Both the position numbers and the translations under genes were made by a program. From Alphaproteobacteria bacterium (GTDB lineage: Bacteria > Pseudomonadota > Alphaproteobacteria > JASGCL01): a stretch of 64,000 nt of DNA. Location: assembly GCA_051010635.1 (NCBI GenBank), contig JBPCVJ010000039.1:2489-66488 (forward strand), written 5' to 3'. This document shows positions 1 through 56,137 of the stretch, in pieces. Under the pieces are notes generated by a model. It was given only the letters and a program-made list of their open reading frames with translations, searched no databases and was not told the origin of the DNA. Position 1 is the stretch's first letter; the number at the start of each line of letters is the position of its first letter.

Positions 1-2
1 TT

Positions 3-554
3 ATGCCAGATAAAATAAATATAGATAATAAATACCACCCCAGCAAAAATTATATATTGCGGGGTAAAAATGCCCTTATTCGTTCGGTAAGAATAGATGA
101 TGCAGAATTTATTTTATCATTAAGAACAGATAAAACATTAACCCAATATCTTCACCAAGTGGATGATGATATTGATAAACAAATTCTATTTATAAAAAAT
201 GACACAAAGAAAAATTATTATTTTATCAGCGAAGACCTATCTGGCAATCGCTATGGCACCATACGCGTTACCAATATCAGAGAAAATAGTTTTACCATTA
301 GCTCATGGCTTACAGGAAAAAATGCACCGATGGGTTTATCCGTCACCGCAATGTTGTTAAGTTATGATTTTGGTTTTTTTAATTTAAATAAAGGTTATAA
401 TTTTTTTAATGTTAGAAAAAACAATATATCGGTTGCTAATTTTCACAAAATTTTTGGCGACACTATTATTGATGAAGATGAACAAAATTATTATTATATT
501 CTGCATAAAAGTGAATATATAAAAATAAGGGATAAATATAAACAATTTTTATAA
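3..554 (+). CDS. GNAT-family N-acetyltransferase (putative). It starts 2 bp from the window edge and may be 5'-partial.
   Basis: 183 aa, the size of a GNAT domain, with a loose acetyltransferase-like motif pattern (RSVRIDDAEFILSLR ... YGTIRV ... GKNAPMG). It is divergent from the neighbouring ligase/SDR/ACP operon. I cannot verify a start upstream of the window. Confidence 0.45.
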   Translation: MPDKINIDNKYHPSKNYILRGKNALIRSVRIDDAEFILSLRTDKTLTQYLHQVDDDIDKQILFIKNDTKKNYYFISEDLSGNRYGTIRVTNIRENSFTISSWLTGKNAPMGLSVTAMLLSYDFGFFNLNKGYNFFNVRKNNISVANFHKIFGDTIIDEDEQNYYYILHKSEYIKIRDKYKQFL

Positions 555-588
555 ATCAAAAATCTGCCCTTTTTTGCTAATAATAGGA

Positions 589-1896
589 TTATAATTTTTT
601 AAAACGATGACTAATATTGATATCATTAAAATAAAACCGATGCGGCACCATTTGCGGCGGCATATTTATTTTACAATATTCTAGCAGATGTTTTTTATCA
701 GGCGTTTCATTATTTTTATAATTAACAGTAACCGCAATATGTTGGCCAACAATAGGATTCGTTTCGGCAAAAACTTTAACCATAGAAATTTTAGGATGTA
801 ACATCAATATATCTTCAACCTGACTAGCCAAAAATTTTATACCACCAACATTTATAACCTCATTATCACGACCAAGAATTTTAATATAACCATTTTTTTC
901 TTCCACTATATCATGCGTGTTATAAAAACCATCTTTATCAAATGGCGATGGTGCATTGATATACCCCATCATGCAATTGGGATTTTTTATATATAAAATT
1001 TTGTTAATAATTTTTGTTTCAACAGCTTCACCGCCAATTTTCATATAAAGACTATCATCGCTTTCGCTTTTGGTAGATAAAATACCAATTTCTGATGCAC
1101 CATAAGTTTGTTTTAATTTTACCTGAGGCAAATTTTTATGAAATTTATTCAATGTCGCCTGATCCATTTTTTCTGTTCCATAAGTAATTATTTTTATAGA
1201 TGGTGGAAAATTTTTAGGAAAATCACTTGACAATAATAGCATTCTCATAAAAGTAGGTGAAACAGGCATATTTTCCACATTATATTTTTTACATAAATTG
1301 ATGATATGGTCGATTGATCTTTGACTAGGTGCGACAATCAAATTTTGATTAAAAAGCGAATGAAGCAATGTATTAATACCGCCAATATGATCAAACAATA
1401 AAAAGCTTAATGTAATCAAGATAGGTCGGGGTTTATTATATTTTTTCAAAAATAATGAAACATCATGCAAAATCGCTTTTGGTTTTCCGGTTATGCCAGA
1501 CGAAAAAAGAATTAACCCGGGTTTGTTTGCGGTGCGTAATTTTTCAATCAATTCATGTTTTTGTTGATGCTTTCTGCGAATAATTTTATTATTTTCAATG
1601 ATAACATCTACCAAACCATTCATAAAAAAATCATCATGTTGCACACGAGTAGAAATAGTTAGTGGCATAATAATGGCATTTTTTTCCACCAACAATATCA
1701 ATGTCATAATTGATTGTGGATTAAAATCACCAATCAAAGCAACCACATCACCAGATTTAATAGATGATAAATCTATTGTTTTTTTGGCATCTAATATATC
1801 TTGAAAAAAATATTCTTTGTTATCATACACAAGAAAAGCTTTTGCCTCATCCCGCCATATATTGACCAAATGTTCAAGCATCTTAAATTCCCCCAA
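589..1896 (-). CDS. Adenylate-forming enzyme (AMP-binding acyl-CoA/acyl-carrier-protein synthetase family)
   Basis: Motifs seen in translation: SSGITGKPKAIL (AMP-binding P-loop-like motif I), QTYGASE (motif II), YNTHDIV and ILGRDNEVINVGGIK (GRxD..K hinge). At 435 aa it is shorter than classical FadD enzymes. Its start overlaps the upstream SDR stop by 14 nt, which suggests an operon. Confidence 0.8.
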   Translation of the reverse strand: MGEFKMLEHLVNIWRDEAKAFLVYDNKEYFFQDILDAKKTIDLSSIKSGDVVALIGDFNPQSIMTLILLVEKNAIIMPLTISTRVQHDDFFMNGLVDVIIENNKIIRRKHQQKHELIEKLRTANKPGLILFSSGITGKPKAILHDVSLFLKKYNKPRPILITLSFLLFDHIGGINTLLHSLFNQNLIVAPSQRSIDHIINLCKKYNVENMPVSPTFMRMLLLSSDFPKNFPPSIKIITYGTEKMDQATLNKFHKNLPQVKLKQTYGASEIGILSTKSESDDSLYMKIGGEAVETKIINKILYIKNPNCMMGYINAPSPFDKDGFYNTHDIVEEKNGYIKILGRDNEVINVGGIKFLASQVEDILMLHPKISMVKVFAETNPIVGQHIAVTVNYKNNETPDKKHLLEYCKINMPPQMVPHRFYFNDINISHRFKKL

Positions 1897-2560
1897 CTGA
1901 CAAAACCTCTCCTGTTATAGATGATAATTTCTTATCCAATAATGCCTCAACCAAACTAGCAATATCATCTGGCTTAAATTGTTTTTGTATAATTTGATGA
2001 GAAAGAATTGATTGTATATTTTTATCAGGAACACCCTTTAACAAATCAGTATCAATAGGACCTGGTGCAATGCAATTAACTTGTATATTAAAATCTGCCA
2101 TTTCTTTTGCAAATGCACGGCTAAACCCTTCAATCCCAGATTTAGCTGCCACATAAATAGATTCCCCCTTAAGAGCAATCATCACCGCAATAGTTGAAAA
2201 ATTAATAATATGACCAGCCGCTTGACGCATCATTAATGGTGCAAAGACTTGGCAAGCAAAAATTGTTCCTAACAAATTTGTTTCAATAATTTGCCTTGTT
2301 TTCTTTTCAGTCGTAGTAATAGCTAAATTCATTGCCGCAATACCAGCCGCATTAATAAGACCTGTAATAGATTTTTTTTGTTTTTTTAATTCATGTGCTA
2401 TTTTTTTTAAATCTTCAAAGCACGCCACATCGACAGCATAAGTTTTAAAATCCGCTGAAAAAGACTCGCGCGAAATACCTATCACTTCATGCCCATTGCT
2501 ATAAAGCCGATTGGCTATAGCTAACCCCAACCCCTTTCGTGCGCCAGTTATAATTATCAT
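1883..2560 (-). CDS. Short-chain dehydrogenase/reductase (FabG-like 3-oxoacyl reductase)
   Basis: N-terminal Rossmann motif IIITGARKGLGLAIANRL. The catalytic region contains YVAAKSG (YxxxK). The 225 aa size is typical for an SDR. Confidence 0.8.
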   Translation of the reverse strand: MIIITGARKGLGLAIANRLYSNGHEVIGISRESFSADFKTYAVDVACFEDLKKIAHELKKQKKSITGLINAAGIAAMNLAITTTEKKTRQIIETNLLGTIFACQVFAPLMMRQAAGHIINFSTIAVMIALKGESIYVAAKSGIEGFSRAFAKEMADFNIQVNCIAPGPIDTDLLKGVPDKNIQSILSHQIIQKQFKPDDIASLVEALLDKKLSSITGEVLSVGGI

Positions 2561-2567
2561 GTTATTT

Positions 2568-2846
2568 TTATGTTGTTTGTTTTATAAATTCGTCAATCAA
2601 ACTACCAACATCCTTAAACATACTACGCGTTTCTGATAATGTACTATCAGAGGTATAAACAAATTCTTTTCCATTCTCATTGGCATAATCTTCTAAAGCC
2701 AAACAAATCCTAACCAAATTTAATGAATCAACACCCGACTGCGAACCAATGAGTTTTGTTTGTTCAGATATAACTCCCCCCCCCTCAGATGGCAAAAGGG
2801 CATCCTGAATAACCTGTAATATTTTATCTCTCATACTTAAACTCAA
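2568..2846 (-). CDS. Acyl carrier protein (phosphopantetheine-binding)
   Basis: 92 aa and acidic. It contains GVDSLNLVRICLALE, which resembles the DSL phosphopantetheine attachment motif. It is the first gene of the ACP-SDR-ligase operon. It contains a G9 homopolymer on the coding strand (the C9 run at plus-strand 2776-2784). Confidence 0.7.
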   Translation of the reverse strand: MSLSMRDKILQVIQDALLPSEGGGVISEQTKLIGSQSGVDSLNLVRICLALEDYANENGKEFVYTSDSTLSETRSMFKDVGSLIDEFIKQTT

Positions 2847-2868
2847 TTAAGATAAATTTATTTTTGTG

Positions 2869-2940
2869 TCAAGAAAATTTATAATGCTATAGAAATGTCT
2901 ACCGCTGTGCCATTATTGATAATCAGGCTGTTGATTTTTT
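2869..2940. repeat. 72-bp direct repeat, copy 1: an orphan copy of the glpX 3' end
   Basis: It is identical over 72 bp to 4291-4362, apart from one fewer T in the terminal T-run. On the minus strand it encodes ...INSLIINNGTAVDISIAL*, the same tail as glpX, but it is not attached to a gene. Confidence 0.9.
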
Positions 2941-3092
2941 CATGGCGGCGGACAAGGTTTATTTTGGGCAGGGGGCGAGTGGTGGTTAAGATGTTTGGGG
3001 CAGACCCCGCCATTTTTTTGCTTGTTTGGGGTTAAGAAACTGCTATAGAGTAAAATATTATTAATTGAATGAAATAAATTAAAGATGGATAT

Positions 3093-4265
3093 ATGGCAGA
3101 ATCAAAAAAAATGATGGTAGATAATGATATGAATTTTTCTTGGGAAAAAAATAAAGTTGTAAAATCACAATTTTTTTTAGAATTATTACACAAGGTTTTT
3201 TTATCATTAAAAACTCCACCAGTTAAAAATAATTGGGACGAATTATTGTGGGGTAAAATTGGTGTAGCTGGCGGTTTTATATTGGATTATCATAGGCGTA
3301 ATTTGCCAAAAGGGGGAGAGCCTTTCATCGGTGGGGAAAAAAACTTTTTGTATATTTTGGAGCATATTGATGATTTTCAAAAGGCACATGATTTATTGGC
3401 AGATAAAGAATCAAAAAACCTTTATAAAGAATTATTGGTTTATCGGCTGTTGGGACCTCGTTATGCCAAACTTTCTATTAACAATGAAACCTATTGGCAT
3501 AAAAGACAACAGGCATTACAATATAAATTACAAGATTATGACAAAAACACAACGCCCGCTTCCTTAAACAATCCCCTTGAAACATTCTATTATTTTACTT
3601 TACCACTAGGTGATAAAAAAACAAAAATTATCAATCCGCTTTTTACTTTTTTTACTTCCTTTTTTATCAAACAATATTTTTTTCAGCGGCAAACAATTTC
3701 TATAACGGTTGAGCCCAATGATGTTATTTTAGATTTTGGATCTTTTTTGGGCGAATCGGCGATTGCTTTTTCCCATGCCACCCATCATCAATGCCAAATC
3801 TATTGCTTTGAATGCGAACCTTATAATCTTGAAGTATTCTACAAAAATCTTGCTAATAATCCTGATAGCAAGAAAAATATTCATATTATTGAGGAGGTGG
3901 TGATGGACCACCCCAACCATGAACTTTATATCATGTCCTTAAAAGCCGAAAGCCGATTAACCAGCGATGCCAAACAAGGTAAGAAAGTTCCTGTTACCAC
4001 CATTGATAATTTTATGGAGGATAAAAAACTTAATAGAATTAATTTTATCAAAATGGATATTCAAGGGTCAGAAGCAAAAGCACTTAAAGGAGGCATTGCC
4101 ACAATAAAAAAACACAAACCAAAATTAGCGATTAGTATTTATCATACTATGGACGACTTGTGGCAAATTATTCATTACCTTGATGGGTTGCAGCTTGGCT
4201 ATCAATTTTACATTGATCATCATTCTTTGACTGAAAATGAAACTATTTTATATGCTAAAGTATAA
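3093..4265 (+). CDS. FkbM-family SAM-dependent methyltransferase with a roughly 200-aa N-terminal extension
   Basis: The C-terminal half contains ILDFGSFLGESAIAF (SAM-binding Gly-rich region) and INFIKMDIQGSEAKALKGG, which matches the FkbM-family hallmark (xDxEGxE-type). It sits between the two copies of the 72-bp repeat. Confidence 0.75.
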   Translation: MAESKKMMVDNDMNFSWEKNKVVKSQFFLELLHKVFLSLKTPPVKNNWDELLWGKIGVAGGFILDYHRRNLPKGGEPFIGGEKNFLYILEHIDDFQKAHDLLADKESKNLYKELLVYRLLGPRYAKLSINNETYWHKRQQALQYKLQDYDKNTTPASLNNPLETFYYFTLPLGDKKTKIINPLFTFFTSFFIKQYFFQRQTISITVEPNDVILDFGSFLGESAIAFSHATHHQCQIYCFECEPYNLEVFYKNLANNPDSKKNIHIIEEVVMDHPNHELYIMSLKAESRLTSDAKQGKKVPVTTIDNFMEDKKLNRINFIKMDIQGSEAKALKGGIATIKKHKPKLAISIYHTMDDLWQIIHYLDGLQLGYQFYIDHHSLTENETILYAKV

Positions 4266-4290
4266 CAGGTAAAAAAGGATTTTTTATTCA

Positions 4291-4362
4291 TCAAGAAAAT
4301 TTATAATGCTATAGAAATGTCTACCGCTGTGCCATTATTGATAATCAGGCTGTTGATTTTTT
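4291..4362. repeat. 72-bp direct repeat, copy 2: the genuine 3' end of glpX
   Basis: Identical to 2869-2940. It overlaps the last roughly 20 codons of glpX. Confidence 0.9.
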
Positions 4363-5257
4363 TGGGCGATACGCCTTGTAATAACATACCATCGGTGATG
4401 CCAGTTAATATCACTGCCATATTTTTTTCATCATCGGTTTTTATAAAATCATCGGTTTGATACCATTTGGTAAAATCATAATTTTCTTTTTCTAAAATTT
4501 TTTTTTCATCATTTGATTGTGGGGCAAAGCGTGCCAAAAATTCGCCCTTAAGAATTTTTGCTATCATAGCGTTTACCACCCCTTCGGGCGAACCACCCAC
4601 CCCCAGCAAGGCATCAACCTTTGGCTGATGCATGAATTTATTTTCGCTGATGGCTAAAACTGCCCCCGCAATATCGCCAGCGGGTATAGCTATCATACGC
4701 GCACCATGTTTTATGATGGCTTGTTTGATGTTGCTATGGCGATGTTTATCCAGCAGATAGATAACCAAGTCTTTTGTTTTTTTTTCTAAAATATCCGCCA
4801 GATGCGGTAGAAATGTTTCATAATTCAATTCGCCATTTAGAAATTTTTTATCAATTTTACCTTTGGCATAAGGTGGTAGGGCAATTTTATCCATATAATA
4901 ACTTTTGCCACAATCCATCATAGTATTTTTGGGCGATAGTGCCAAAACCACCAAACTATTGCCCAAACCATGGGCAAAAAAGCTAGTGCATTCCAGCGGG
5001 TCAATTGCCAAATCATACAACCATTCTGTATTTTTATCGCCAACCATTTCGCCACGATAAAGTGCAGGGGCATTATCTTTTTCGCCTTCGCCAATTATCA
5101 CCTTTGCTTGAAAGGGCGCTTTATCAAAACCTTGCCGTAAATGATGCACACAAACCCCATCAGCCATATCTTTATCGCCTGCCCCCCACAGCGGTAAAAC
5201 GGCACGGGCGGTTGATGCGGCTAATTGATGCAAAAATTCCAGATGCAATTTTTGCAT
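4301..5257 (-). CDS. glpX: Fructose-1,6-bisphosphatase class II (GlpX)
   Basis: Strong similarity to the GlpX family: GEGEKDNAPALYRGE, AIDPLE, LDKHRH and GVGGSPEGVV align with the E. coli GlpX blocks GEGEIDEAPMLYIGE, AVDPIE, LAKPRH and GIGGAPEGVV. Confidence 0.9.
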   Translation of the reverse strand: MQKLHLEFLHQLAASTARAVLPLWGAGDKDMADGVCVHHLRQGFDKAPFQAKVIIGEGEKDNAPALYRGEMVGDKNTEWLYDLAIDPLECTSFFAHGLGNSLVVLALSPKNTMMDCGKSYYMDKIALPPYAKGKIDKKFLNGELNYETFLPHLADILEKKTKDLVIYLLDKHRHSNIKQAIIKHGARMIAIPAGDIAGAVLAISENKFMHQPKVDALLGVGGSPEGVVNAMIAKILKGEFLARFAPQSNDEKKILEKENYDFTKWYQTDDFIKTDDEKNMAVILTGITDGMLLQGVSPKKINSLIINNGTAVDISIAL

Positions 5258-5754: not shown

Positions 5755-8700
5755 TTAGATAAAATTAATATTATCTTGCCCGCCCACTAGGTCAAGGAAT
5801 TGTTGGTAAGTTAGGGCGGCAGTGCCATTTTGGTCAAGGCTAAGACCATTAGGGGTTGCGAATTCGCCATTCAAGTTCGGGCTTTGCCAATCAAATGCAT
5901 TAAAATTATCTTTATCGCCATAGATATAAATTCGGTCATTTCCTGTGCCATCGCCATCAATATCAAACATAATATGACCCGTGCCATCATTGGCATTATC
6001 TTGAATAAAATACCAATGGTACTGGTTTTGATTGCCATCAGGGTCGGTGAAGACAATAAAACTATCATCTAAATTATCAGCGGTTAAGTTATGATAATTT
6101 TTGCCATCATCATTGGTATAATGTGCGTTGGAAAAATAAATATCTGCCGATAGAATAACATTGCCATTGTATATGGCATCATCAACATAAATAGGGGTGT
6201 TGGGTGGTGGGTGGTTTGGGGATTCATTAATATCAACCAAAGACAAAATGAAAGTTTGGGTTATGGATAGGGCGCCATCGCCCACCCCCGCACCACCATC
6301 TGTGCCGATAGCATTGATGGTGATGGTAAAATAATTGCCAGCATGGCCATTATATGTGCCCTCATAATCAAGGCTTGATATAAGGGTCAAAACACCTTCG
6401 GTATCTATCATGAATAGATTGCTATCAGTGCCGCCTATGCTGTAGCTAATATCTGCACCATCGGTATCGACTGCGGTGAAGGTGGTGATGGTTAAATCAG
6501 ATGCATTATTTTCATTGACCGTCGTCCCAGCACTTTGTGTGCCAGACCATTCGGTCATTTCATCGTTAACATTGTTGATGCTTAAAACAAATATTTGGGT
6601 TATCGCCGATGTGCCATCGCCCACCATAATGCCATCGGCTGTGCCGATGGCATTAATTGTTATGGTAAAATAATTGCCATCATAACCGCCATAGATGCCT
6701 TCATAATCGATCGTAGATTTTAAGCTCAACCCCCCCATATTATCAATCGAAAATAAATTGCTATTGATACCGCTGAGAGAATAGGCAATGCCAGCTCCAT
6801 CGGCATCGGTTGCTATAAAGGTGGCAAAGGCTACATTGACAACATCGTTTTCATCTATCACCGCCCCCGCATTTTGTGTGCCAGACCATTCGGTTGGTTG
6901 GTCATTAAGGTTTGTTTCATTGGTGCCATCATTGTTGATGGTTAAAATAAAAGTTTGGCTAAGAATCAAAGCACCATCACCCACCCCATCTCCACCGCTG
7001 GTGCCAATCGCATGGATGGTGATGGTAAAATAATTACCATAATGACCATTATAAGTTTTTTCATAATCAATGCTGGATTTTAGGGTTAAAACCCCCGCTG
7101 TATCTATAGCAAATAAATTTCTATCATCGCCTGCTATACTATAGCTAATATCCGCCCCATCGGCATCGGTTGCCATAAAGGTGGCAAGGCTTACATCAAC
7201 CGCATTATTTTCATTGATGGCGGCACCTGTGCTTGGTGTGCTAAGCCATGCGGTTGGTTGGTCATTCACATCAACTTCGTCTTCGTCGCCAACACTTAAA
7301 ATAAAAATTTGGGTTATTGCCAATGCACCACCGCCTATGCCTTGCCCACCGCCTGTGCCAAGTGCGTGGATAGTGATGGTAAAATAATCCCCCCGATGCT
7401 CATGATAGGTTTCTTCATAATCAATGCTGGATTTCAAAATTAAAACACCATTGTCATCAATAGTAAATAAATCACTATCATCGCCTGTGATACTATAGCT
7501 AATTCCTACCCCATCGGCATCGGTTGCCGTAAAGGTGGTTAATACCAATTCAGAAACATTATTTTCATCGATCATGACTCCTGAACTCGGCGTGCCAGAC
7601 CAAATTGCCATTTGATCATTAACATTGGGATCATCCACCCCATCATCAATCACAGTTAAAATAAAAGTTTGGGTTATCGCCAAAGCACCATCGCCTCTTC
7701 CAAAGCCATCGCTTGTGCCAAATGCACGAATGGTTATCGTAAAATAATTCGCAACATGGTTATTATAGGTTGTCTCATAATCAATGCTGGATTTTAAAAT
7801 TAAAACACCATTTTCATCAATGCTAAATAAATTACTATCAGTCCCAATGATACTATAATCAATGTCGGTCCCATCGGCATCTATAGCGGTAAAGGTGGCT
7901 AACATCAATTCAGAGGCATTATCTTCATTAATCATGCCGCCCGTGCTTGGTGTGCCAGACCAAATTGCCATTTGATCATTGCTGTTAGGTTCGTCTTGAT
8001 TATTAAGCGTTAAAATAAATATTTGGCTGATAGATAATGCACCATCGCCCACCCCCGCACCACCATCTGTGCCTATCGCATTGATGGTGATGGTAAAATA
8101 ATTGCCATTATGACGATTATATATGCCCTCATAATCAAGGCTGGATAGGAGAGTCAAAGCACCTTGCGAATCTATGGTGAATAGGTTGGTATCGGTGCCT
8201 GTGATGCTATAATTGATATTGTTGCCATCAAAGTCAATAGCACTAAAAATAGTCAATATCAGACCAGAAGCATTATTTTCATCAATCATTTCACCCGCAC
8301 TTGGTGTATCCGCCCATCTGGTAGGTTGGTCGTTAAGATTCAGTTCGTTAATCCCATCATTGCCAATGCTTACAACAAAATTTTGGGTTAAAACAATTCC
8401 ACCCGCACCCACACCATCACCGCCTGCCGTGCCGATCGCATTGATAGTAATGGTATATTGATGACTAACCGTTTCATAATCAAGCAATGATATAAATGTT
8501 AGAATACCAGTATCGCTATCAATAGAAAAATAAACACTATCTGTTCCAGTAATTGAATAACTGATACCTGCACCATCATCATCAATAGCGGTAAAAGTGG
8601 TTATCACCACATCGGTTGTATCTTCTTCAATAATAAAAATATCCGAAGTTTGATTATCCGACCAAATGGTTGGTTGGTCATTAACATCGGGGTCATTCAC

Positions 8701-10086
8701 ACCATCATTATCAATACTCAAAACAAAATTTTGGGTTATCACGCCGCCGCCATCATTTTCACGAGCCGATATGATAATACTATAGATAGGGTTAGTGCGT
8801 TCTTCAAAATCAAGCGACGATATGAATGTTAAAATCCCATCATGATTAATATAAAAATAATCGGCATCAGCACCGCTTAAACTATATTGAATAAACCTTG
8901 AACTGCCACCACCATCTACATCAACTGCCAAAAATGTGCCAATCAATATGTTGGCGGTATCGGTTTCGCTAATAGACAAATCGCTTGAGGTTGTCATCCA
9001 AGCCGTATCATCATCAATGTTATAGGCTTGCAAAACAAAAATGGTTGAAATAGATTCATTGCTATCGCTGGAATGGGCATACACCACAACCGAAAAAATA
9101 CCATCGCCATTGGTAGAAGCCTCATAATCAAAACTACCTATTAATCGCAATTCACCAGTATCCTCATCGATTGAAATGGTCGCAAGGGCCGCCTCATCAC
9201 CAGTCAAACTATAACTTATTTCACTATTATCGCCATCACGCGCTGAAAAAAATGCCAAATGATAATCATGCAAACCATCCATTTCATTGGCTGATAAAAA
9301 ATTCCTTTGCGTGCCGTGCCACAGCAGTGGATATTCATCAACATTGGATATTGATAAAACAAATAATGTACTTATCACCAGAGTGCCATCGCCTGATGCC
9401 GCCCCGCCATCTCTACCACGGGCATTGACCAAAACGGTGTAATTGCCCCAACGCTCCCTATCGGTAATTCCTAAACTTAACCAATAATTACTAAGATATT
9501 CATAATCAGGCTGATGTTTTAACCTTATCACGCCATCGCCACCTATCATCATAAGGGCAGTGCCAATACTATCTGGTGTATTGCTTAACCAATAATCTAT
9601 GCCTGGTCCATCAGGGTCTGTGGCAGAAAAAGTCGCAACCCCGCTACCGATATTTGCCGTTTCATCTATGGTTGCCGATGATGGATTACCGACAAACCAT
9701 CTAGCTACCCTATCATTCAAGCCATCTTCATGCAGATTGACAACCGACAAAACAAACAAACTGGTTAGGGCGGGCTCATCAATTACCCTATCGCTTGGTG
9801 CAGCATTAACCACAACGGTATAATTATTCCAGCGTTCTTGATTATAATTGCCAACATCACGCCAATATTGGATTAGATATTCATAATCAACAAAATGCCT
9901 TAATCTAATAACACCATCTAGCCCGATGGTCATAAGCACCAAACCAGCATTATCATCACTGGTGAGCCAATAGCTTATATCGTTGGATTCAGTATCGCTG
10001 GCAACAAAACTTGCTACAGGTTCGCCAACGCCTTTGTTTTCTTCCACATAGCCATCTTCTGGATTGACATCCCAAGTCGTTGTCAT
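5755..10086 (-). CDS. Giant secreted adhesin-like protein with at least 8 tandem cadherin-like repeats
   Basis: 1443 aa. A roughly 110-aa unit repeats: NDQPT.WSGT.S.G..I.ENN.S.L.L.TFTA.DADG..ISYSI.G.DSNLF.ID..GVLTLKSSIDYE..YN.H.GNYFTITI.AIGT.GG.GVGDGAL. Each unit shows cadherin hallmarks (DxDxNDQP linkers, ATDADG calcium sites, LDYE). There is no N-terminal signal peptide. The C-terminus carries Gly/Asp-rich DIDGDGTGNDRIYIYGD, which resembles RTX/T1SS-type calcium-binding and secretion regions. Confidence 0.85.
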   Translation of the reverse strand: MTTTWDVNPEDGYVEENKGVGEPVASFVASDTESNDISYWLTSDDNAGLVLMTIGLDGVIRLRHFVDYEYLIQYWRDVGNYNQERWNNYTVVVNAAPSDRVIDEPALTSLFVLSVVNLHEDGLNDRVARWFVGNPSSATIDETANIGSGVATFSATDPDGPGIDYWLSNTPDSIGTALMMIGGDGVIRLKHQPDYEYLSNYWLSLGITDRERWGNYTVLVNARGRDGGAASGDGTLVISTLFVLSISNVDEYPLLWHGTQRNFLSANEMDGLHDYHLAFFSARDGDNSEISYSLTGDEAALATISIDEDTGELRLIGSFDYEASTNGDGIFSVVVYAHSSDSNESISTIFVLQAYNIDDDTAWMTTSSDLSISETDTANILIGTFLAVDVDGGGSSRFIQYSLSGADADYFYINHDGILTFISSLDFEERTNPIYSIIISARENDGGGVITQNFVLSIDNDGVNDPDVNDQPTIWSDNQTSDIFIIEEDTTDVVITTFTAIDDDGAGISYSITGTDSVYFSIDSDTGILTFISLLDYETVSHQYTITINAIGTAGGDGVGAGGIVLTQNFVVSIGNDGINELNLNDQPTRWADTPSAGEMIDENNASGLILTIFSAIDFDGNNINYSITGTDTNLFTIDSQGALTLLSSLDYEGIYNRHNGNYFTITINAIGTDGGAGVGDGALSISQIFILTLNNQDEPNSNDQMAIWSGTPSTGGMINEDNASELMLATFTAIDADGTDIDYSIIGTDSNLFSIDENGVLILKSSIDYETTYNNHVANYFTITIRAFGTSDGFGRGDGALAITQTFILTVIDDGVDDPNVNDQMAIWSGTPSSGVMIDENNVSELVLTTFTATDADGVGISYSITGDDSDLFTIDDNGVLILKSSIDYEETYHEHRGDYFTITIHALGTGGGQGIGGGALAITQIFILSVGDEDEVDVNDQPTAWLSTPSTGAAINENNAVDVSLATFMATDADGADISYSIAGDDRNLFAIDTAGVLTLKSSIDYEKTYNGHYGNYFTITIHAIGTSGGDGVGDGALILSQTFILTINNDGTNETNLNDQPTEWSGTQNAGAVIDENDVVNVAFATFIATDADGAGIAYSLSGINSNLFSIDNMGGLSLKSTIDYEGIYGGYDGNYFTITINAIGTADGIMVGDGTSAITQIFVLSINNVNDEMTEWSGTQSAGTTVNENNASDLTITTFTAVDTDGADISYSIGGTDSNLFMIDTEGVLTLISSLDYEGTYNGHAGNYFTITINAIGTDGGAGVGDGALSITQTFILSLVDINESPNHPPPNTPIYVDDAIYNGNVILSADIYFSNAHYTNDDGKNYHNLTADNLDDSFIVFTDPDGNQNQYHWYFIQDNANDGTGHIMFDIDGDGTGNDRIYIYGDKDNFNAFDWQSPNLNGEFATPNGLSLDQNGTAALTYQQFLDLVGGQDNINFI
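6330..8680. repeat. Intragenic tandem DNA repeats of about 330 bp. These are the cadherin-like repeat units of the giant gene.
   Basis: Periodic near-identical segments are visible in the ORF translation and in recurring DNA strings such as ccatcggcatcggttgc and gataatagaaat-like blocks. The boundaries are approximate. Confidence 0.6.
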
Positions 10087-10142: not shown

Positions 10143-11009
10143 TCAAAACCCCAACTTAAAATCAGCTATCACCGAGCCGATATTACCTGAGGCAAAATCC
10201 TTTGCCAGCAAAAGCTCTGAACCAGCCCCACGGTTGGTATTACGCCTATCACCAAACACAAAATAATAATCAAAACGCAGTTCAACATCCATCGTGCTAA
10301 ATATAGATAAATCACGAACGATATTAAATTTAACACCGGTGCCAATTTTTAACAAAATATTATTGCCAGCTTTATCCAAATCATCTGGGTTAGGTATGGT
10401 TTCATCAAATAGACCTTTTGTAACAATATCCTCTGTTTGCCAAAATAATACCCCCACCCCCAATCGCAAGGGGAAAGAAAATTGCCAAACCGAAATGCCA
10501 TGGTAGGATTGATCAATCGTAAAAATATAATTATTAAAAGTCACATCGCTAATAACTGCAGGGTCGGTAAGATAAATCTTACCGCTATTACCATAATACA
10601 TAAAATTGGCTTCAGCCGAATAGTTTTGATTAAAATCATAACCAAGCGAAATGCTAGGGGCATAGCCAACTGTAAAACTATTGGTTATATGGTTGCTAGG
10701 GGTGGTTGAGTCATCATCATCATTATTCCCACGATAAAAACCTTCCTCATCAAATGGAATAATAACCGCAAAACCGCCCTTAAAAAACAAACCAAGTGTA
10801 TCTGACTCAGGTGGCAAGGAATAATCATTGGCTATAATTTTAATAGGTTTAGCCGTAGGTTGATTATTGGCTTTGGTATCAGGCTTATTAGTATCCTGTG
10901 CCCACGCCATCAATGGCATAAAACATAAAATAAATTTTATAAATAACCCCATCAACCATAATGAAGTAAAAGAAAAACCAATAGAAGAAAATTTCATGGC
11001 AGGCAACAA
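10143..11009 (-). CDS. Outer membrane beta-barrel protein (small, OmpA/Omp25-like barrel family)
   Basis: It has an N-terminal signal-like hydrophobic segment (..FMPLMAWAQDT). Alternating amphipathic beta-strand pattern. The terminal residues are ...DFKLGF, with the terminal Phe typical of OMP barrels. It lies directly upstream of, and co-directional with, the cadherin-repeat gene. Confidence 0.55.
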   Translation of the reverse strand: MLPAMKFSSIGFSFTSLWLMGLFIKFILCFMPLMAWAQDTNKPDTKANNQPTAKPIKIIANDYSLPPESDTLGLFFKGGFAVIIPFDEEGFYRGNNDDDDSTTPSNHITNSFTVGYAPSISLGYDFNQNYSAEANFMYYGNSGKIYLTDPAVISDVTFNNYIFTIDQSYHGISVWQFSFPLRLGVGVLFWQTEDIVTKGLFDETIPNPDDLDKAGNNILLKIGTGVKFNIVRDLSIFSTMDVELRFDYYFVFGDRRNTNRGAGSELLLAKDFASGNIGSVIADFKLGF

Positions 11010-11091
11010 TAAAGTCTTTTGTGATTGAATGCAACAAATTATTTAAAAACTCTTCATAATAAATTTATCAAAAAATTATTTTATGTTTGTA

Positions 11092-12723
11092 TCAATTAAT
11101 TATGTTGTCATCGCTTGAGGGCAATAAACCCATATATTGTTGCATAGCCTTATCAGGTTGCCGCCATAAATTAAAATAAAATGGTGAAACATAAAGAGCT
11201 TGTGTCATTATTTTTTGCCTTGTAGCAATTGATGGCATATCAGTAAATTCTTGAAACATAGAATAACCAAAACCCAATCGCCCGCCTGCCACCTTAAAAT
11301 CCAACAGTTCAAGCATAGTGGGGAAAAGGTCATAATGGGTTACCTGCCTTTCATTTGCCAGCCTTAATTTTTGTTTATAGATAAAACCATAAATATCACG
11401 ATGGGGATAAAGTGCATCCCATGTTTTAATATCAACATAAGCAATGGCAGTCATACGATGGTCGCCCATCAATAATATCTCGCTATCTTTAAGTAAATTC
11501 ATAGATTCAGCTTTGGCAAAAAAATCATGTAGTGCTTGGGCGGTGCATTCCACCACCTTATCCAAATTATCCACATTGGTTGGTGCATTATAATGGCAAG
11601 AACTGCTAGCTGGCAAATGCATATCAATGGTTGCGATGATTAAAAAAAATGGTGTGCCATCTATTTTTCTTCTATCTTGCAATTCTTTTAATTTGTTATA
11701 ACCTTCTTCCAAAATAGGGGCATCGTGCAATCCCCATTGTCCTTGTTTTTCGGAAATGGCGGTGCCATAACCATTTTGTTGAAAATATTCCATGTGATAA
11801 GCTTCATCAAAATGATGGGTTTGATTATAAAAATCCGCAAGCCCAGCCGAATTGCGAAAGGCGGCTTGAATAAAAACATTGTCATAACCATATTTTTTTA
11901 AAATATCGCTTAAACAAATTGCATTTTGTAAAACGGTGGAATCGCCATGGGTATTTTTTAAATCAATAAAAAATACCGACCTTATCGGCAAACCACATTG
12001 GCTAGCAACATGACCTGATTGGGTATGCACTGCCGTGCCGATGGTTTTAAAATTGAGCACCAATGATTTATCCTCAATAGGCTGTAAAGCCGCTAATAAA
12101 TTTCGCCCATAATAGGCTGGGTGCTTAAAACTATCTTCTAAACTTTCAACATAAATCACTATCAAATTTTTTTTCTTTTTGGGGGCAACGATCGCAACTT
12201 GTTTTGGGTCAATATAATTTTGTTGAAAATAATCTGGCTGATGTGGCCACGGCACACGGCTATAAACAAAATCGGTTATATTGGCCCCACGCCAAAAAAT
12301 CGAACAACTAACCATAACAATCATTAACACCAAAAAAAATTTTATCCTTAATCGCCACCAACCAATTTTTTTTATTTGCAATGGATCTTTGGTATTTTTT
12401 TTTAACCGCAAAGCTATCCATTGGTCAAAAAATGATAACAATAATGCCACCAACCATGGCATCAAAATCAGATATAAAATGCCAGTTTGGGTATAATAAA
12501 ATGGTGCTTCCAAACCTTTGGTGCCAAACATCAATAACATAGAAATGGTTTCCATGCTTGGGCCACTAAAATTACGCCATAACCAAAGATGAAACCCATA
12601 AAACATCAAGGGCACATAATAAGGCAATGCCCCCAACAATAGTGAAAAAACGCCCAATTGTTTAGCAGTTAGCATTTTAAAAAAACGGCTTTGACCACCG
12701 CCAGCTAAATCATCATTCGCCAT
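11092..12723 (-). CDS. Sulfatase-like membrane phosphotransferase (LTA-synthase / phosphoglycerol-transferase MdoB-like family)
   Basis: N-terminal multi-TM region followed by an alkaline-phosphatase-superfamily domain: LIVIYVESLEDSF (the VxxES motif of LtaS/EptA-type enzymes), IIATIDMHLP and LLMGDHRMT (the MGDH metal-binding motif). Confidence 0.7.
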   Translation of the reverse strand: MANDDLAGGGQSRFFKMLTAKQLGVFSLLLGALPYYVPLMFYGFHLWLWRNFSGPSMETISMLLMFGTKGLEAPFYYTQTGILYLILMPWLVALLLSFFDQWIALRLKKNTKDPLQIKKIGWWRLRIKFFLVLMIVMVSCSIFWRGANITDFVYSRVPWPHQPDYFQQNYIDPKQVAIVAPKKKKNLIVIYVESLEDSFKHPAYYGRNLLAALQPIEDKSLVLNFKTIGTAVHTQSGHVASQCGLPIRSVFFIDLKNTHGDSTVLQNAICLSDILKKYGYDNVFIQAAFRNSAGLADFYNQTHHFDEAYHMEYFQQNGYGTAISEKQGQWGLHDAPILEEGYNKLKELQDRRKIDGTPFFLIIATIDMHLPASSSCHYNAPTNVDNLDKVVECTAQALHDFFAKAESMNLLKDSEILLMGDHRMTAIAYVDIKTWDALYPHRDIYGFIYKQKLRLANERQVTHYDLFPTMLELLDFKVAGGRLGFGYSMFQEFTDMPSIATRQKIMTQALYVSPFYFNLWRQPDKAMQQYMGLLPSSDDNIIN

Positions 12724-12823
12724 ATTTTTATTTTATTGTGCGGTTAGCATCCGATATTAATTTTTGCATTTTTAAGCGATGATAAAAAAATTGTCAAGAG
12801 ATAAGGCAAATATCATCATCTAC

Positions 12824-14482
12824 CTATCTGGCAACAGGCCTTGTCCAAAGATTAAGGTAGGTTTTAGAATATTGCAATGATTCGCCAATAATTTTATGCC
12901 ATTCATCAAGATTGGGATAAGAAGGATGTTTTTGAAAAACCGAATAACCAAGCCCCAAACGCCCGCCTTGAATCTTAAAACCCAAATGTTCTAATAAACT
13001 AGGAAACAGGTCATAATGGGTTATATCATATCTCATAGGTTCTAAATTTTTTTGCAAAAATAAATTATAAATATGCCGCACGGGATAAACCGCATTCCAT
13101 TCAACCATCTTAATGCCTTTCATACCAAATAACAAATGGTCTCCTATAATAACAACATTGCTATTGGCAAATAAATTATGATGATCGGCTTTGGTAAGAA
13201 AATTTGCCAAGCTAGCACTGGTGCATTCCACCACCTTATCCAATGTTTTATCTTTGGCATCAACGGTGCAAGTCGAATCAGCCAAAGGGTGAAGGTCAAG
13301 CGTAGCCACCATCAATAAAAAAGGTTGCTGTGTATTTTTTTTATGCTTTTGTAGCCATAGCAATTTTTTATAAGTTTCTTCAAAAATATATTCATCATAT
13401 AATCCCCACTGACCTTTTTTATGGGGCGTCAAAGCATAACCACGCAAATTCCAATCTTCTAAATAATAGGTTTCATCAAATTGATGGCTATTATAAAAAT
13501 TACCCATACCACCCGTTTTGAAAGTTGCCCCTTTCATAAAAACATTATAATAGCCGTGGGTTTTTAAAATATCACTCAGGCAGGTGGCATTGTGTAAAAT
13601 ATGTTTTATTTGTTTTTGTTGTTTATTAACATTGGAATTATTTTTGCCAAATAAAATACTCTTTAAGGGCAAACCACATTCTAAACTTACATGGGCGGAT
13701 ATGGTATAACTATTGGGCGGAACTTGATGAAAAGTTAATTGCATGCCTTTATTTTCAAAAGGCAATAGATGGGGTATAAGATTGCGACCAAAAAAATCTG
13801 GCTGGCGAAAATTATCTTCAAAACTTTCTAGAATAATAATTACCAAATTTTTTTTATTGTCTGGGGGTGTGATGATAACATTTTTTGGGTCAATATAATG
13901 GCGAGCAAAATAATCAGGGTTGTTCGCAGTTTGAAAAACTTGTTCGCCCTGTAAAAAATCCTTCAATTTCATATCCACTGACAAATTCATAGTATTAGAA
14001 ACAATAAAAAAAATAATTGCCAACCATTTCAAATAGAAAAAAACCTTGCCAAATATGTTTAAAATGTTTGGTAAATTTTTTTTTGCCTTAGTGTTCAATA
14101 CTAATTGCAAAACAATGGGCAAGATAAAACCACTGCCAACTATTCGCACTACCTTTACCAACAAAGCCAATAATAAAGCTATCACCAATGGTATTAAAAC
14201 CACAAAATAAATAAAAGTTAGATAAACATAATTGGCAGCTTCTATACCATCAACCCCAAAGGCAAGATGATTCATCACCTGTGCCAAACTTGGCATATCA
14301 AAATATCGTTTTAACCAATAATGAAAATAATAAATCATCAATGGCAAACAATACGGCAAACCAGCCACCAGCCATTGCCAGCTAATTTTTTTTAAACTCA
14401 GATGCGATAATTTTCTTTTTTGCAAAAATAACCAACTAGTCCATCGCCGCCTATTCAACCGTTGAAAACCAAACTTAAACAA
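12824..14482 (-). CDS. Sulfatase-like membrane phosphotransferase, tandem paralog of 11092-12723
   Basis: Same architecture and collinear motifs: LVIIILESFEDNF, MVATLDLHP and VVIIGDHLLF. It is clearly paralogous to its neighbour. Confidence 0.7.
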   Translation of the reverse strand: MFKFGFQRLNRRRWTSWLFLQKRKLSHLSLKKISWQWLVAGLPYCLPLMIYYFHYWLKRYFDMPSLAQVMNHLAFGVDGIEAANYVYLTFIYFVVLIPLVIALLLALLVKVVRIVGSGFILPIVLQLVLNTKAKKNLPNILNIFGKVFFYLKWLAIIFFIVSNTMNLSVDMKLKDFLQGEQVFQTANNPDYFARHYIDPKNVIITPPDNKKNLVIIILESFEDNFRQPDFFGRNLIPHLLPFENKGMQLTFHQVPPNSYTISAHVSLECGLPLKSILFGKNNSNVNKQQKQIKHILHNATCLSDILKTHGYYNVFMKGATFKTGGMGNFYNSHQFDETYYLEDWNLRGYALTPHKKGQWGLYDEYIFEETYKKLLWLQKHKKNTQQPFLLMVATLDLHPLADSTCTVDAKDKTLDKVVECTSASLANFLTKADHHNLFANSNVVIIGDHLLFGMKGIKMVEWNAVYPVRHIYNLFLQKNLEPMRYDITHYDLFPSLLEHLGFKIQGGRLGLGYSVFQKHPSYPNLDEWHKIIGESLQYSKTYLNLWTRPVAR

Positions 14483-51844: not shown

Positions 51845-52762
51845 ATGATGAAAAAAACATTCAAACAAACTCTATTGGCGTCAGCTTTGATAGGTTTGGC
51901 AGGTATTGCCAATGCTAAAGATGGGTTCTATGTAACCCCTGATTTCAATTTGCTATTTGTCGATAGTGGCTACACCAAAGATAATGGCACAGGCGTTGGT
52001 TTTGGTGGCGGTTTGCTAACTGGCTATCAAATCAATAATTTTCAACTCGAATTGGCGGCTGCCTACCAATATTATGGTGGCACAGGCTCGGTAACCCAAA
52101 ATCTTACACCAACGGGGCAACAGGCTGCCCTTGGCGGTGCTCAAGTTACAGGGGATGCTGAGGTTGGTGATGGTTCTGGATCAATGACCAGCTCGGTTGA
52201 TAGCAATGAAGCTTTCATTCCCTTAACATTGGGGGTGAATTATATCATTCCGCTTAATGACAGCGGGTCATTTTCCATTTCGCCCGGTATTGCAACTGGC
52301 GTGTGGTTTCACACCATAGATAGAAGCTTCTCTCTTAGCCCTGATGCTAATGTGATTAATGCTACTATTGGTGGTGCAAATGCAACCCAAGAGGGTCAAG
52401 TAGCGTTTGGTGCAGCTGTGGCAAATGCTATTACTGCTAGTGGTGGAACTCTAAACCAAGCTCAAGCCTCACAAGCGGTGGCAGCGGGTATTTTAGACGG
52501 AAATGCTCCCGATGATTCTGCTAGCGAAACCAAATGGGTTATCGTGCCAGCCTTGAACATGGATTATGCGATATCGCAAAATTTCACCATGCGTCTTGCG
52601 GGTAAATTTTATCTTGTGCCATCTGGCTACAGCGATAATTATGATGCCACTAACCAAGCCAATGCCGAGGCAGGGTCAGCTTTGTTTGCCCCAGCCTATA
52701 ATGGCGTAGAAGATTTCTTCTGGTATGGTGCGGTTAATCTTTCAGCACAATATACTTTCTAA
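51845..52762 (+). CDS. Outer membrane beta-barrel protein (Omp25/Omp31-like surface antigen family)
   Basis: Clear signal peptide (MMKKTFKQTLLASALIGLAGIANA-KDG). Gly/Ala-rich loops. C-terminal ...LSAQYTF with terminal Phe. Paralog of 54295-55029. Confidence 0.7.
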   Translation: MMKKTFKQTLLASALIGLAGIANAKDGFYVTPDFNLLFVDSGYTKDNGTGVGFGGGLLTGYQINNFQLELAAAYQYYGGTGSVTQNLTPTGQQAALGGAQVTGDAEVGDGSGSMTSSVDSNEAFIPLTLGVNYIIPLNDSGSFSISPGIATGVWFHTIDRSFSLSPDANVINATIGGANATQEGQVAFGAAVANAITASGGTLNQAQASQAVAAGILDGNAPDDSASETKWVIVPALNMDYAISQNFTMRLAGKFYLVPSGYSDNYDATNQANAEAGSALFAPAYNGVEDFFWYGAVNLSAQYTF

Positions 52763-54294: not shown

Positions 54295-55029
54295 TCAAAA
54301 CCTATATGATGAACCGATGGTAACACCGCTATACCATAAAAGCCCGTCTTCTGGTCTGGGGCTTTCGGTGGTATAATATCCTTCGGTGTTGGCGATATCA
54401 ATAGCCGAATCGCTATAAACTTCATTATAACCACCAAACACCATATAAAATTTTCCTGCCAAAATAAGCGTCCATTGGTCATCAAGCGCATAGATCAATT
54501 CTATTTTTGGCACCAATAACCCCCTGATGATGGATGTGGTATCATCAAATGATGCGGTGCCATCAAATGGCGTAGTATTATCGGTGGTGGTAAAGGTTTT
54601 ATTCACACTATAAATCATCATGCCGCCACCGACGCTAAAGGTGGTATCGATGCTTTGTAAAAAGGGAAAGGTGTAATTGACACTACTATAGATGGGGAAA
54701 AAATTTTCGCTAATATCGCCTTCAAGATTTGTGGCGTCGCCAATTTTTTGCGTTTTGCCCGAACCGAAAGCATAATGCCAGCCAGCGGTGGCTTCCCATT
54801 GCCAAGCATCAAATTGATAGCCAAAGCTAAAGCTTAAACCAGCACCAAGCCCAGTTTCGCCCGAACCACGGGTTAAATCAGACGGGATAAGAATAAATTC
54901 CCCCTCAGGTTTGATAAACCAGCCGTCTTCGGCTTTGGCAGTACCCACCGCCATCATCGAGGTTAATAATAAACTGGCTAAACCAATTTGGATGTTTTTT
55001 TTCATTTTATTGCGGCGATGTTTTTTCAT
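54295..55029 (-). CDS. Outer membrane beta-barrel protein (Omp25/Omp31-like)
   Basis: Signal peptide (..MKKNIQIGLASLLLTSMMAVGTAKA-EDG). C-terminal ...IGSSYRF. The true start is probably the second Met, at about 55005. Confidence 0.7.
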   Translation of the reverse strand: MKKHRRNKMKKNIQIGLASLLLTSMMAVGTAKAEDGWFIKPEGEFILIPSDLTRGSGETGLGAGLSFSFGYQFDAWQWEATAGWHYAFGSGKTQKIGDATNLEGDISENFFPIYSSVNYTFPFLQSIDTTFSVGGGMMIYSVNKTFTTTDNTTPFDGTASFDDTTSIIRGLLVPKIELIYALDDQWTLILAGKFYMVFGGYNEVYSDSAIDIANTEGYYTTESPRPEDGLLWYSGVTIGSSYRF

Positions 55030-55351: not shown

Positions 55352-56137
55352 TTATCGTATCAATTTGATACCATAACCTTTTTGATGACCATTCGTATCC
55401 TTTAGAATTTTATTATTGATAGTTTCCAAAACTTTTAGACCAAAATTATTACTTAATTTATCAATTATTCCATATTGATAAAGCACATAAAATTTAAGAA
55501 TAGTTGTTATCATATCACATATTTCTAATCCACAGATTCTATGTTTTTTATTCCTTTCTTTTATTTTATTTGTTGTGATTACTTTTTGAATTTCGTTACT
55601 ATCGCTATAATCGGTGCCCTTATTATAAAAATTTTCAAATGTTTTTCTTAATTGTTGGTTTTCATGTTTTCCCCTCTGTTCTATCATAACATCACCTTGT
55701 TTATTATTTTCTATTAAAAAACGAACATATCTTTCTAATAAAACATTTAAAGTATAGTGGTAAGGATGGTAAGGGTGGAGATAACGATTTTTATGATTTG
55801 TTTTATCTAATACGACAGATATGATATTCATATTATTTTTAGATAAAAAGTCCAAATATATTTTATCAAATTTATTTTTTAGATTAATATCATTTTTTAA
55901 TTTAGAAAAAATGCCTTTTCCATTAATCACATCAATAAGATGAAAATTAGGTAAATGACCATTTGTATCAATAAATAAATTTCTTATTTCTTCCCATTCA
56001 GTGCTAATTTTTTCATAGATATCATTATGAATAATAACGCCTGATAGGCAAAGATAGCGAAATGGTATATCATCTAATGTTGAGTAACGATGATCCCCGC
56101 TTTCATCAATATATATTCGATATTTATCTTTCATCAT
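55352..56137 (-). CDS. DUF3800-like protein in a singleton AT-rich island
   Basis: 261 aa. It begins MMKDKYRIYIDESGDH, and from memory the N-terminal YIDESG motif is the hallmark of the Pfam DUF3800 family. It is visibly more AT-rich than its neighbours. It has its own terminator. Confidence 0.55.
   Translation of the reverse strand: MMKDKYRIYIDESGDHRYSTLDDIPFRYLCLSGVIIHNDIYEKISTEWEEIRNLFIDTNGHLPNFHLIDVINGKGIFSKLKNDINLKNKFDKIYLDFLSKNNMNIISVVLDKTNHKNRYLHPYHPYHYTLNVLLERYVRFLIENNKQGDVMIEQRGKHENQQLRKTFENFYNKGTDYSDSNEIQKVITTNKIKERNKKHRICGLEICDMITTILKFYVLYQYGIIDKLSNNFGLKVLETINNKILKDTNGHQKGYGIKLIR

Follow-up and report, generated by a model that had tools for sequence, protein, structure and literature searches.

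In a 64,000-nt stretch of DNA from an uncultured alphaproteobacterium (lineage JASGCL01; contig JBPCVJ010000039.1, positions 2,489 to 66,488 of the forward strand), analyzed here at its full length and called the window below, a 72-nt direct repeat that carries the 3′ end of glpX brackets a segment whose sole gene encodes an FkbM-family methyltransferase. This arrangement is a new example of a familiar type of genomic scar, attachment-site (att)-like or Campbell-type, that surrounds an islet lacking an integrase on the margin of a genomic island. We interpret the two repeat copies as attL/attR-like junctions left by the recent single-crossover (Campbell-type) integration of a small circle, a reading to which we assign a probability of roughly 0.55. 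The features on which the argument turns, in coordinates of the window, are:

2869–2940, minus strand: repeat copy 1 (R1), the displaced, orphan glpX 3′ end, assigned by its identity to 4291–4362
4291–4362, minus strand: repeat copy 2 (R2), the working glpX 3′ end plus 10 nt of intergenic DNA, assigned by alignment of the tail to the GlpX proteins of relatives
4301–5257, minus strand: glpX, encoding a class II fructose-1,6-bisphosphatase (PF03320), the proposed insertion target
2941–4290, no strand: the unit between the repeats, 1,350 bp with FkbM as its sole gene; with one repeat copy added, the proposed 1,422-bp insertion/excision unit
3093–4265, plus strand: FkbM-family methyltransferase gene, 390 aa, convergent with glpX (PF05050, TIGR01444)
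2941–3092: spacer, 152 bp
4266–4290: spacer, 25 bp

The repeat, its glpX origin, and a proposed integration

The segments at 2869–2940 and 4291–4362 are identical at 72 of 72 positions, with no mismatches, as established by reading of the sequence, by a repeat finder (family D6), and by pattern search. When as many as three mismatches were allowed, the repeat matched exactly twice in the 64-kb window and in 0 of 100 shuffles, and a short-word search of the 64 kb returned no third or partial copy. An earlier note on this DNA, made from the sequence alone, had proposed a comparison of the window with itself; when the first 6 kb were compared by BLAST with the entire window, the repeat pair was the sole significant self-match. 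That note had also described the two segments as the same except for a 1-nt difference in a T-run. The identity stands, but the difference is merely the boundary of the repeat, which ends sharply (base 2941 is C and base 4363 is T, with T-runs of 6 and 7 nt, respectively). Beyond both repeat ends, the flanks showed no likeness above shuffled controls (alignment score 23; shuffle mean 18.4, maximum 30), and flank alignment revealed no sequence resembling the glpX body upstream of copy 1. Genome, metagenome, and viral contig collections contained no exact match to a 40-mer from the repeat, and exact look-ups of the GlpX and FkbM proteins of the window returned no record. The possibility that the copy 1 flank is a diverged glpX pseudogene was rejected, as the alignment contained no similarity outside the 72 bp.

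Copy 2 consists of the last 59 coding nucleotides of glpX, the TAA stop codon, and 10 nt of downstream DNA, in agreement with the earlier assignment of the real GlpX C terminus to this copy. Copy 1 encodes the same ...KINSLIINNGTAVDISIAL* tail and, as had been recognized, is orphaned; it lies 22 nt before the TTG start of an open reading frame (ORF) resembling an acyl carrier protein (ACP), or 34 nt before an ATG start of the same ORF. GlpX itself matched PF03320 (FBPase_glpX) at 244.5 bits (cut-off 27; E-value 1.5e-72), scored 190.9 bits against the NCBIfam equivalog TIGR00330, under the cut-off of 259.3, and is orthologous by synteny to the GlpX proteins of relatives. The C-terminal tail in this GlpX clade is short and divergent. 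The closest GlpX proteins among 5.8 billion sequences were 67–69% identical, and no genome nearer than 69% was present in the collections searched. The repeat-encoded tail KINSLIINNGTAVDISIAL aligns with the relatives' GlpX tails KAQSLIVANGAATTTDYFF and QANSMIINNGVATLTDYIF, and at the nucleotide level, homology to the relatives extends past the glpX body and into copy 2, as far as 4325–4344. Because the tails align and this DNA homology enters copy 2, the 72-mer is native glpX DNA and copy 1 its displaced duplicate.

Five related loci were compared: L001 (from a 1.63-Mb circular contig), L002, L003, L013, and L014. The window and all five relatives have an upstream synteny in common, comprising genes for an aldehyde dehydrogenase, a pyridoxal phosphate (PLP) enzyme, a radical SAM protein, a sulfatase, an outer membrane protein (OMP)-like protein, a 117-aa protein, and GlpX. 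In 5 of 5 relatives, the next gene after glpX is fba (class II aldolase), which is absent from the 64-kb window even though the upstream synteny is kept. Because all five relatives have the glpX–fba order and the ACP module found beside glpX in the window is low-GC foreign DNA, the ancestral neighbor of glpX is fba, not the ACP operon. The earlier proposal that glpX and the ACP operon were once contiguous thus fails for the ancestral state and can apply only to an intermediate one, for which support is weak to moderate.

The glpX–fba spacer of the relatives carries a conserved promoter, AAAAATCTTGACC-N12-TTAATTATGAA...ATG. The 10 nt of the repeat past the stop codon (ATTTTCTTGA) line up with the beginning of the −35 box in the relatives (TCTTGACC), and the repeat ends inside this box. 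Past copy 2, the sequence continues with TG and then the FkbM stop codon; past copy 1, it continues as C...N16...TTAATT, which defines one further feature:

2845–2874, minus strand: TCTTGAC-N16-TTAATT, a possible remnant of the ancestral glpX–fba promoter, starting inside R1 and entering the ACP upstream flank

The relaxed pattern TCTTGAC-N10-18-TTAATT has one match in the window (2845–2874, minus strand), with 0.05 expected. Because only copy 1 continues as TTGAC...TTAATT, as the insertion model predicts, the match suggests, at weak to moderate strength, that part of the DNA originally downstream of glpX survives next to copy 1.

From these features we infer a circular intermediate. A circular DNA of ~1,422 bp would have carried FkbM together with the region upstream of that gene and 72 bp duplicating the glpX 3′ end. 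Crossover inside the 72-bp identity, where the core gene glpX borders on a glycan-modification island gained by horizontal transfer, would leave the glpX end intact (copy 2) and move the former glpX end (copy 1) 1.4 kb away, where copy 1 would remain attached to the pre-insertion downstream DNA, consisting of the fba-promoter-like remnant and then an operon for the ACP, a short-chain dehydrogenase/reductase (SDR), and a ligase. The topology of the window (glpX body, repeat, unique 1,350 bp, repeat, older downstream DNA) is that produced by a single crossover with a repeat-bearing circle. Because copy 1 is non-coding yet identical to copy 2 at 72 of 72 positions, the event was probably recent. 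The crossover would have been catalyzed in trans, because no recombinase is encoded in the unit or the window. For the enzyme, we lean slightly toward a site-specific integrase encoded elsewhere over RecA acting on the 72-bp homology; RecA requires a minimum of roughly 25–30 bp of homology, and 72 bp lies above this limit. In favor of an integrase, the repeat runs from the coding end across the stop codon to a few bases past it, the att layout that regenerates a target gene; in the usual logic of att sites, the 3′ end of the target gene is preserved. The integrase route would make the unit a decayed or satellite element similar to a cis-mobilizable element (CIME); that such att-flanked cargo units are well documented at housekeeping-gene 3′ ends (PMC7563491) also favors an integrase.

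Insertion, as the earlier note proposed, is therefore upheld in the sense of a repeat–unit–repeat layout that regenerates the glpX 3′ end with a repeat that is native to glpX, but not in the sense of a target duplication made by a transposon, which is unlikely with 72 bp being too long and the unit being devoid of terminal inverted repeats. The statement that no transposase or integrase is present was borne out for the unit and for the whole 64 kb. Transposition was excluded as a mechanism by the lack of a transposase and of terminal inverted repeats and by the length of the duplication; target duplications made by transposases are typically 2–14 bp. An integron cassette was likewise excluded, as there is no attC-like fold and no intI in the window; the repeat with its flanks gave no significant structured-RNA or attC-like fold on either strand (z from −0.4 to +0.3).

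The enclosed unit and the low-GC island beside glpX

The FkbM protein matched PF05050 at 69.6 bits (cut-off 22.7; E-value 4.6e-19) and TIGR01444 at 72.5 bits (cut-off 37.7; E-value 4.8e-20). Its closest homologues are 35–37% identical and lie in sugar and glycan clusters with DegT, WbqC, epimerase, and glycosyltransferase genes; none of these homologues identifies a donor, and none (0) is linked to glpX. The GC content at third codon positions (GC3) of the FkbM gene is 0.279. The 1,350-bp unit had no DNA matches in plasmid or phage collections, and there are no inverted repeats at 2941 or 4290. The remaining features of the unit and the genes to its left are:

1–4290, no strand: low-GC (~28–36%) glycan-modification island, abutting the glpX 3′ end, exceeding the left edge of the window, and occupying the position of fba in relatives
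2941–3020, plus strand: GC-rich stub at the R1-proximal end of the unit, 55% GC inside surroundings of ~30% GC
2879–3013, minus strand: 44-codon ORF, the orphan glpX tail fused in frame to an unrelated 25-codon leader (from the ORF list)
2568–2846, minus strand: ACP-like gene with a GVDSL motif, first of the ACP–SDR–ligase module, 44% identical to the 100-aa first gene of the module in locus L010
1883–2560, minus strand: FabG-like SDR reductase (family matches)
589–1896, minus strand: ANL adenylate-forming ligase (family matches)
3–554, plus strand: GNAT acetyltransferase (family match)

The stub at 2941–3020 contains a plus-strand stop codon at 2986–2988 and a terminator-like hairpin at 2996–3009 followed by a T7 run, and paired motifs bracket the hairpin: GGTTAAGA at 2984 and 3030, and TGTTTGGGG at 2992 and 3023, the latter motif having just these two copies in the 64 kb. 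Six-frame searches found no homologue of the stub, and it has no significant RNA fold. The region at 2941–3037 could be the remnant of a lost gene with its terminator, or could hold protein-binding sites. The 44-codon ORF at 2879–3013 had no family match even at an E-value of 10 and is probably not a gene. Just upstream of the FkbM start, the plus-strand sequence TTAATTgaATGAAATAAA at 3061–3078, which occurs nowhere else in the window (0.02 expected), resembles the −10/5′ untranslated region of the fba promoter in relatives but is in the opposite strand orientation; chance matches elsewhere reach its alignment score.

Genes of the island have GC3 values of 0.22–0.28, compared to 0.32–0.43 for core genes. 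For the ACP–SDR–ligase genes alone, GC3 is 0.22–0.26 against the same 0.32–0.43 in core genes. This trio is 44–55% identical to a widespread module found inside NeuB/PseB/DegT/PglD/Maf (nonulosonic-acid) clusters; the SDR and ligase (GC3 0.225–0.23) are 53–55% identical to the module in NeuB/PseB/DegT/PglD clusters, and the ACP-like ORF has no Pfam match. Because of this low GC and GC3 and the glycan-cluster homologues of both FkbM and the ACP–SDR–ligase trio, the DNA on both sides of copy 1 belongs to a glycan-modification island of foreign origin whose anchor is the glpX 3′ end. In the widespread ACP–SDR–ligase–GNAT module, all four genes point in the same direction (the GNAT gene is at 4810–5391 in L010). 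The GNAT gene of the window (3–554, plus strand) is convergent with the ligase and has no detectable homology to the module GNAT; the window module is therefore rearranged or has had its GNAT gene replaced.

Several observations concern other parts of the window. A minus-strand gene at 5755–10086 encodes a 1,443-aa cadherin-like protein with tandem units of ~354–360 nt (at least 8 units); it lies between a 119-aa gene and the OMP-like gene, a position at which the relatives have no such gene, their cadherin-like genes being further upstream. Two adjoining sulfatase paralogues occupy 11092–14482 (minus strand), where the relatives' loci show a single sulfatase call. At 55352–56137 (minus strand), a DUF3800 gene with 24.6% GC and a GC3 of 0.16 forms a second strongly low-GC islet among housekeeping genes. 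A family of 245–305-aa proteins without a Pfam match has members at 51845–52762 (plus strand) and 54295–55029 (minus strand) of the window and five paralogous copies downstream of fba in L001 and L002 (12.5–20.4 kb).

Evidence against integration and competing explanations

A number of results weigh against the integration of a circle. Integrase, transposase, and recombinase domains are absent from every ORF of at least 120 aa in the window, including those beside three tRNA genes; these ORFs are housekeeping genes or have no family match. The same ORFs include no relaxase, coupling-protein, or VirB4 gene, and the unit holds FkbM alone, a content that agrees with that of a CIME. The collections searched contained neither a circular form nor an empty site nor a second genome of this species, and a literature search for glpX as an att site returned nothing relevant. 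With 1.4 kb and one gene, the unit lies at the extreme lower end of CIME sizes. No integrative and conjugative element (ICE) or integrative and mobilizable element (IME) lies in tandem, either to the right of glpX or at positions 1–2868, the island exceeding the left edge of the window. The promoter-remnant pattern was relaxed after inspection of the data, and nhmmer and Smith-Waterman scans did not single out 2845–2874 from background, their scores not being significant. Finally, with a background set of 85 diverse glpX loci among the matches listed (relatives at no more than 39% identity), a distant duplicate of the glpX 3′ end flanking cargo was found in 0 of 85.

Neither these 85 loci among the matches listed nor the five close relatives revealed a recurrent integration hotspot at the glpX 3′ end. 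The glpX–fba junction is uninterrupted in 4 of the 5 close relatives. L002 contains an insert of ~600 bp at 10975–11590 whose two short ORFs (61 and 104 aa) have no Pfam match; it lies in the same 10-nt spacer between the glpX stop codon and the fba −35 box and is flanked by an imperfect 20-nt T-rich repeat (17/20). We regard this insert as an independent insertion at the same spacer and as only an ambiguous parallel. In an unrelated actinobacterial metagenome-assembled genome (MAG; L033, Solirubrobacterales, OY969890.1), a perfect 68-nt tandem duplication occurs at the glpX 3′ end, at 10917–11051 of the locus.

A possible but less favored explanation is that illegitimate or linear-fragment recombination left the repeat as a scar while a hypervariable glycan locus was being remodeled, with no circle involved. 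Such a scar could arise by homology-facilitated illegitimate recombination after DNA uptake, or by duplication of a larger stretch that included the glpX end, followed by deletion, and the 2940/2941 boundary would then be a random breakpoint 62 nt inside glpX. The locus does look like a frequently rebuilt mosaic, with glycan-island genes of similarly low GC3 on both sides of copy 1. In the unit, the R1-proximal end resembles a truncated gene end with its terminator, as would fit an arbitrary breakpoint; the GNAT gene is arranged differently from that of the conserved module, and no recombinase is present. However, pairing of a donor repeat with the recipient repeat normally gives replacement rather than duplication, the duplication–deletion route needs two extra events with end points exactly at the repeat ends, and there is no trace of further glpX sequence beside copy 1.

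We are doubtful of a second alternative, in which the FkbM unit is a live, non-autonomous, single-gene cassette that uses its 72-bp mimic of the glpX 3′ end as an attachment site, at which a recombinase acting in trans would insert and excise it. Under this scheme, the paired TGTTTGGGG and GGTTAAGA motifs near copy 1 may be arm-type binding sites. Were it true, surface-glycan modification genes would be shuffled singly, in an uncultured alphaproteobacterium with a small genome, at an att site provided by a protein-coding gene.

Assembly or population heterogeneity could in principle produce the same contig, if an empty chromosome (glpX, one repeat, ACP) and a separate FkbM molecule or strain variant had been joined through the 72-mer. 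The source is a 67,102-bp MAG contig, an exact 72-bp repeat exceeds common de Bruijn k-mers, and the integrated form yields the same assembly graph as a circle plus an empty site. The assembly path nevertheless needs all four repeat–flank junctions in the reads, so at least the repeat–FkbM–repeat cycle must be real; moreover, a 1.4-kb circle without a replication gene cannot persist, 72 bp is shorter than a typical read so that reads can resolve the repeat, and the contig is otherwise colinear with the relatives. An artefact of this kind is unlikely.

It is very improbable that copy 1 has a function, whether in regulation, in termination, or within a 44-aa protein, for which selection or gene conversion has preserved its identity to copy 2: the 72/72 identity outside glpX, the in-frame 44-codon ORF, and the TTGA that copy 1 supplies to a perfect −35 box (TTGACA) ahead of the ACP operon are set against the lack of a significant fold on either strand, of an Rfam match for the repeat and flanks, of a family match for the ORF, of a full consensus promoter on the minus strand, and of anything comparable in relatives.

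If the single-crossover integration of a circle is correct, the repeat marks a discrete and probably recent step in the building of a surface-glycan island beside a core gene, in a lineage known only from metagenomes. Through the insertion, the ACP operon would have been cut off from glpX read-through, and the R1 junction would have gained a perfect TTGACA hexamer. If the two copies recombined with each other, FkbM would be removed precisely and glpX would again adjoin ACP; because the repeats are long enough for such deletion, FkbM is potentially a presence-or-absence module for surface-glycan methylation. Should the unit still excise, the presence or absence of one methyltransferase would offer a simple route to glycan and antigen variation in the population.

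Comparison with known systems

Like transposons and insertion sequences, the glpX locus has an insert flanked by a direct duplication of target DNA; it differs from them in having no transposase, no terminal inverted repeats, and a repeat that is several-fold longer. The topology is identical to that of Campbell-type integration of a suicide plasmid by single crossover, in which the homology is duplicated as a direct repeat around the insert and the event is reversible, but the glpX event is natural and the homology is only 72 bp.

The tycheposon-built islands of Prochlorococcus and other tRNA-linked islands are likewise variable foreign islands anchored at the 3′ end of a conserved gene (bioRxiv 10.1101/2020.12.28.424599). 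The likeness extends to island accretion, in which a partial copy of the gene end inside the island marks a separate integration event (bioRxiv 10.1101/2020.12.28.424599). Unlike those islands, the island beside glpX has a protein-coding target, no tyrosine recombinase or fragment of one in the 64 kb, and only two visible repeat copies.

CIMEs are cargo units of 1.2–13 kb that lack an integrase and sit between att repeats at housekeeping-gene 3′ ends, that of the aldolase gene fda among them (PMC7563491). In streptococci, where they are what remains of ICEs or IMEs, their sites are rpmG, rpsI, fda, rplL, and tRNA-Lys; CIMEs commonly carry glycan and carbohydrate cargo (PMC7563491). The FkbM unit resembles these elements in being a cargo-only unit within direct repeats that duplicate a housekeeping 3′ end, in lacking integrase, relaxase, and transfer genes, and in its size of ~1.4 kb, which is in range. 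It differs in that no tandem ICE or IME was seen and there is no sign of descent from one, in that the host is an uncultured alphaproteobacterium rather than a Firmicute, and in that glpX is not a reported site. In streptococci, the decayed units lie farthest from the target gene, whereas the FkbM unit adjoins glpX. The att repeats of the ICESt1/ICESt3 family, at roughly 27 bp, are shorter than the 72-bp glpX repeat. The scar is otherwise of a common genomic type and by itself implies no new mechanism; as an integrase-less, att-like islet at the 3′ end of a protein gene, it would place this kind of element also outside the Firmicutes, where CIMEs have been catalogued.

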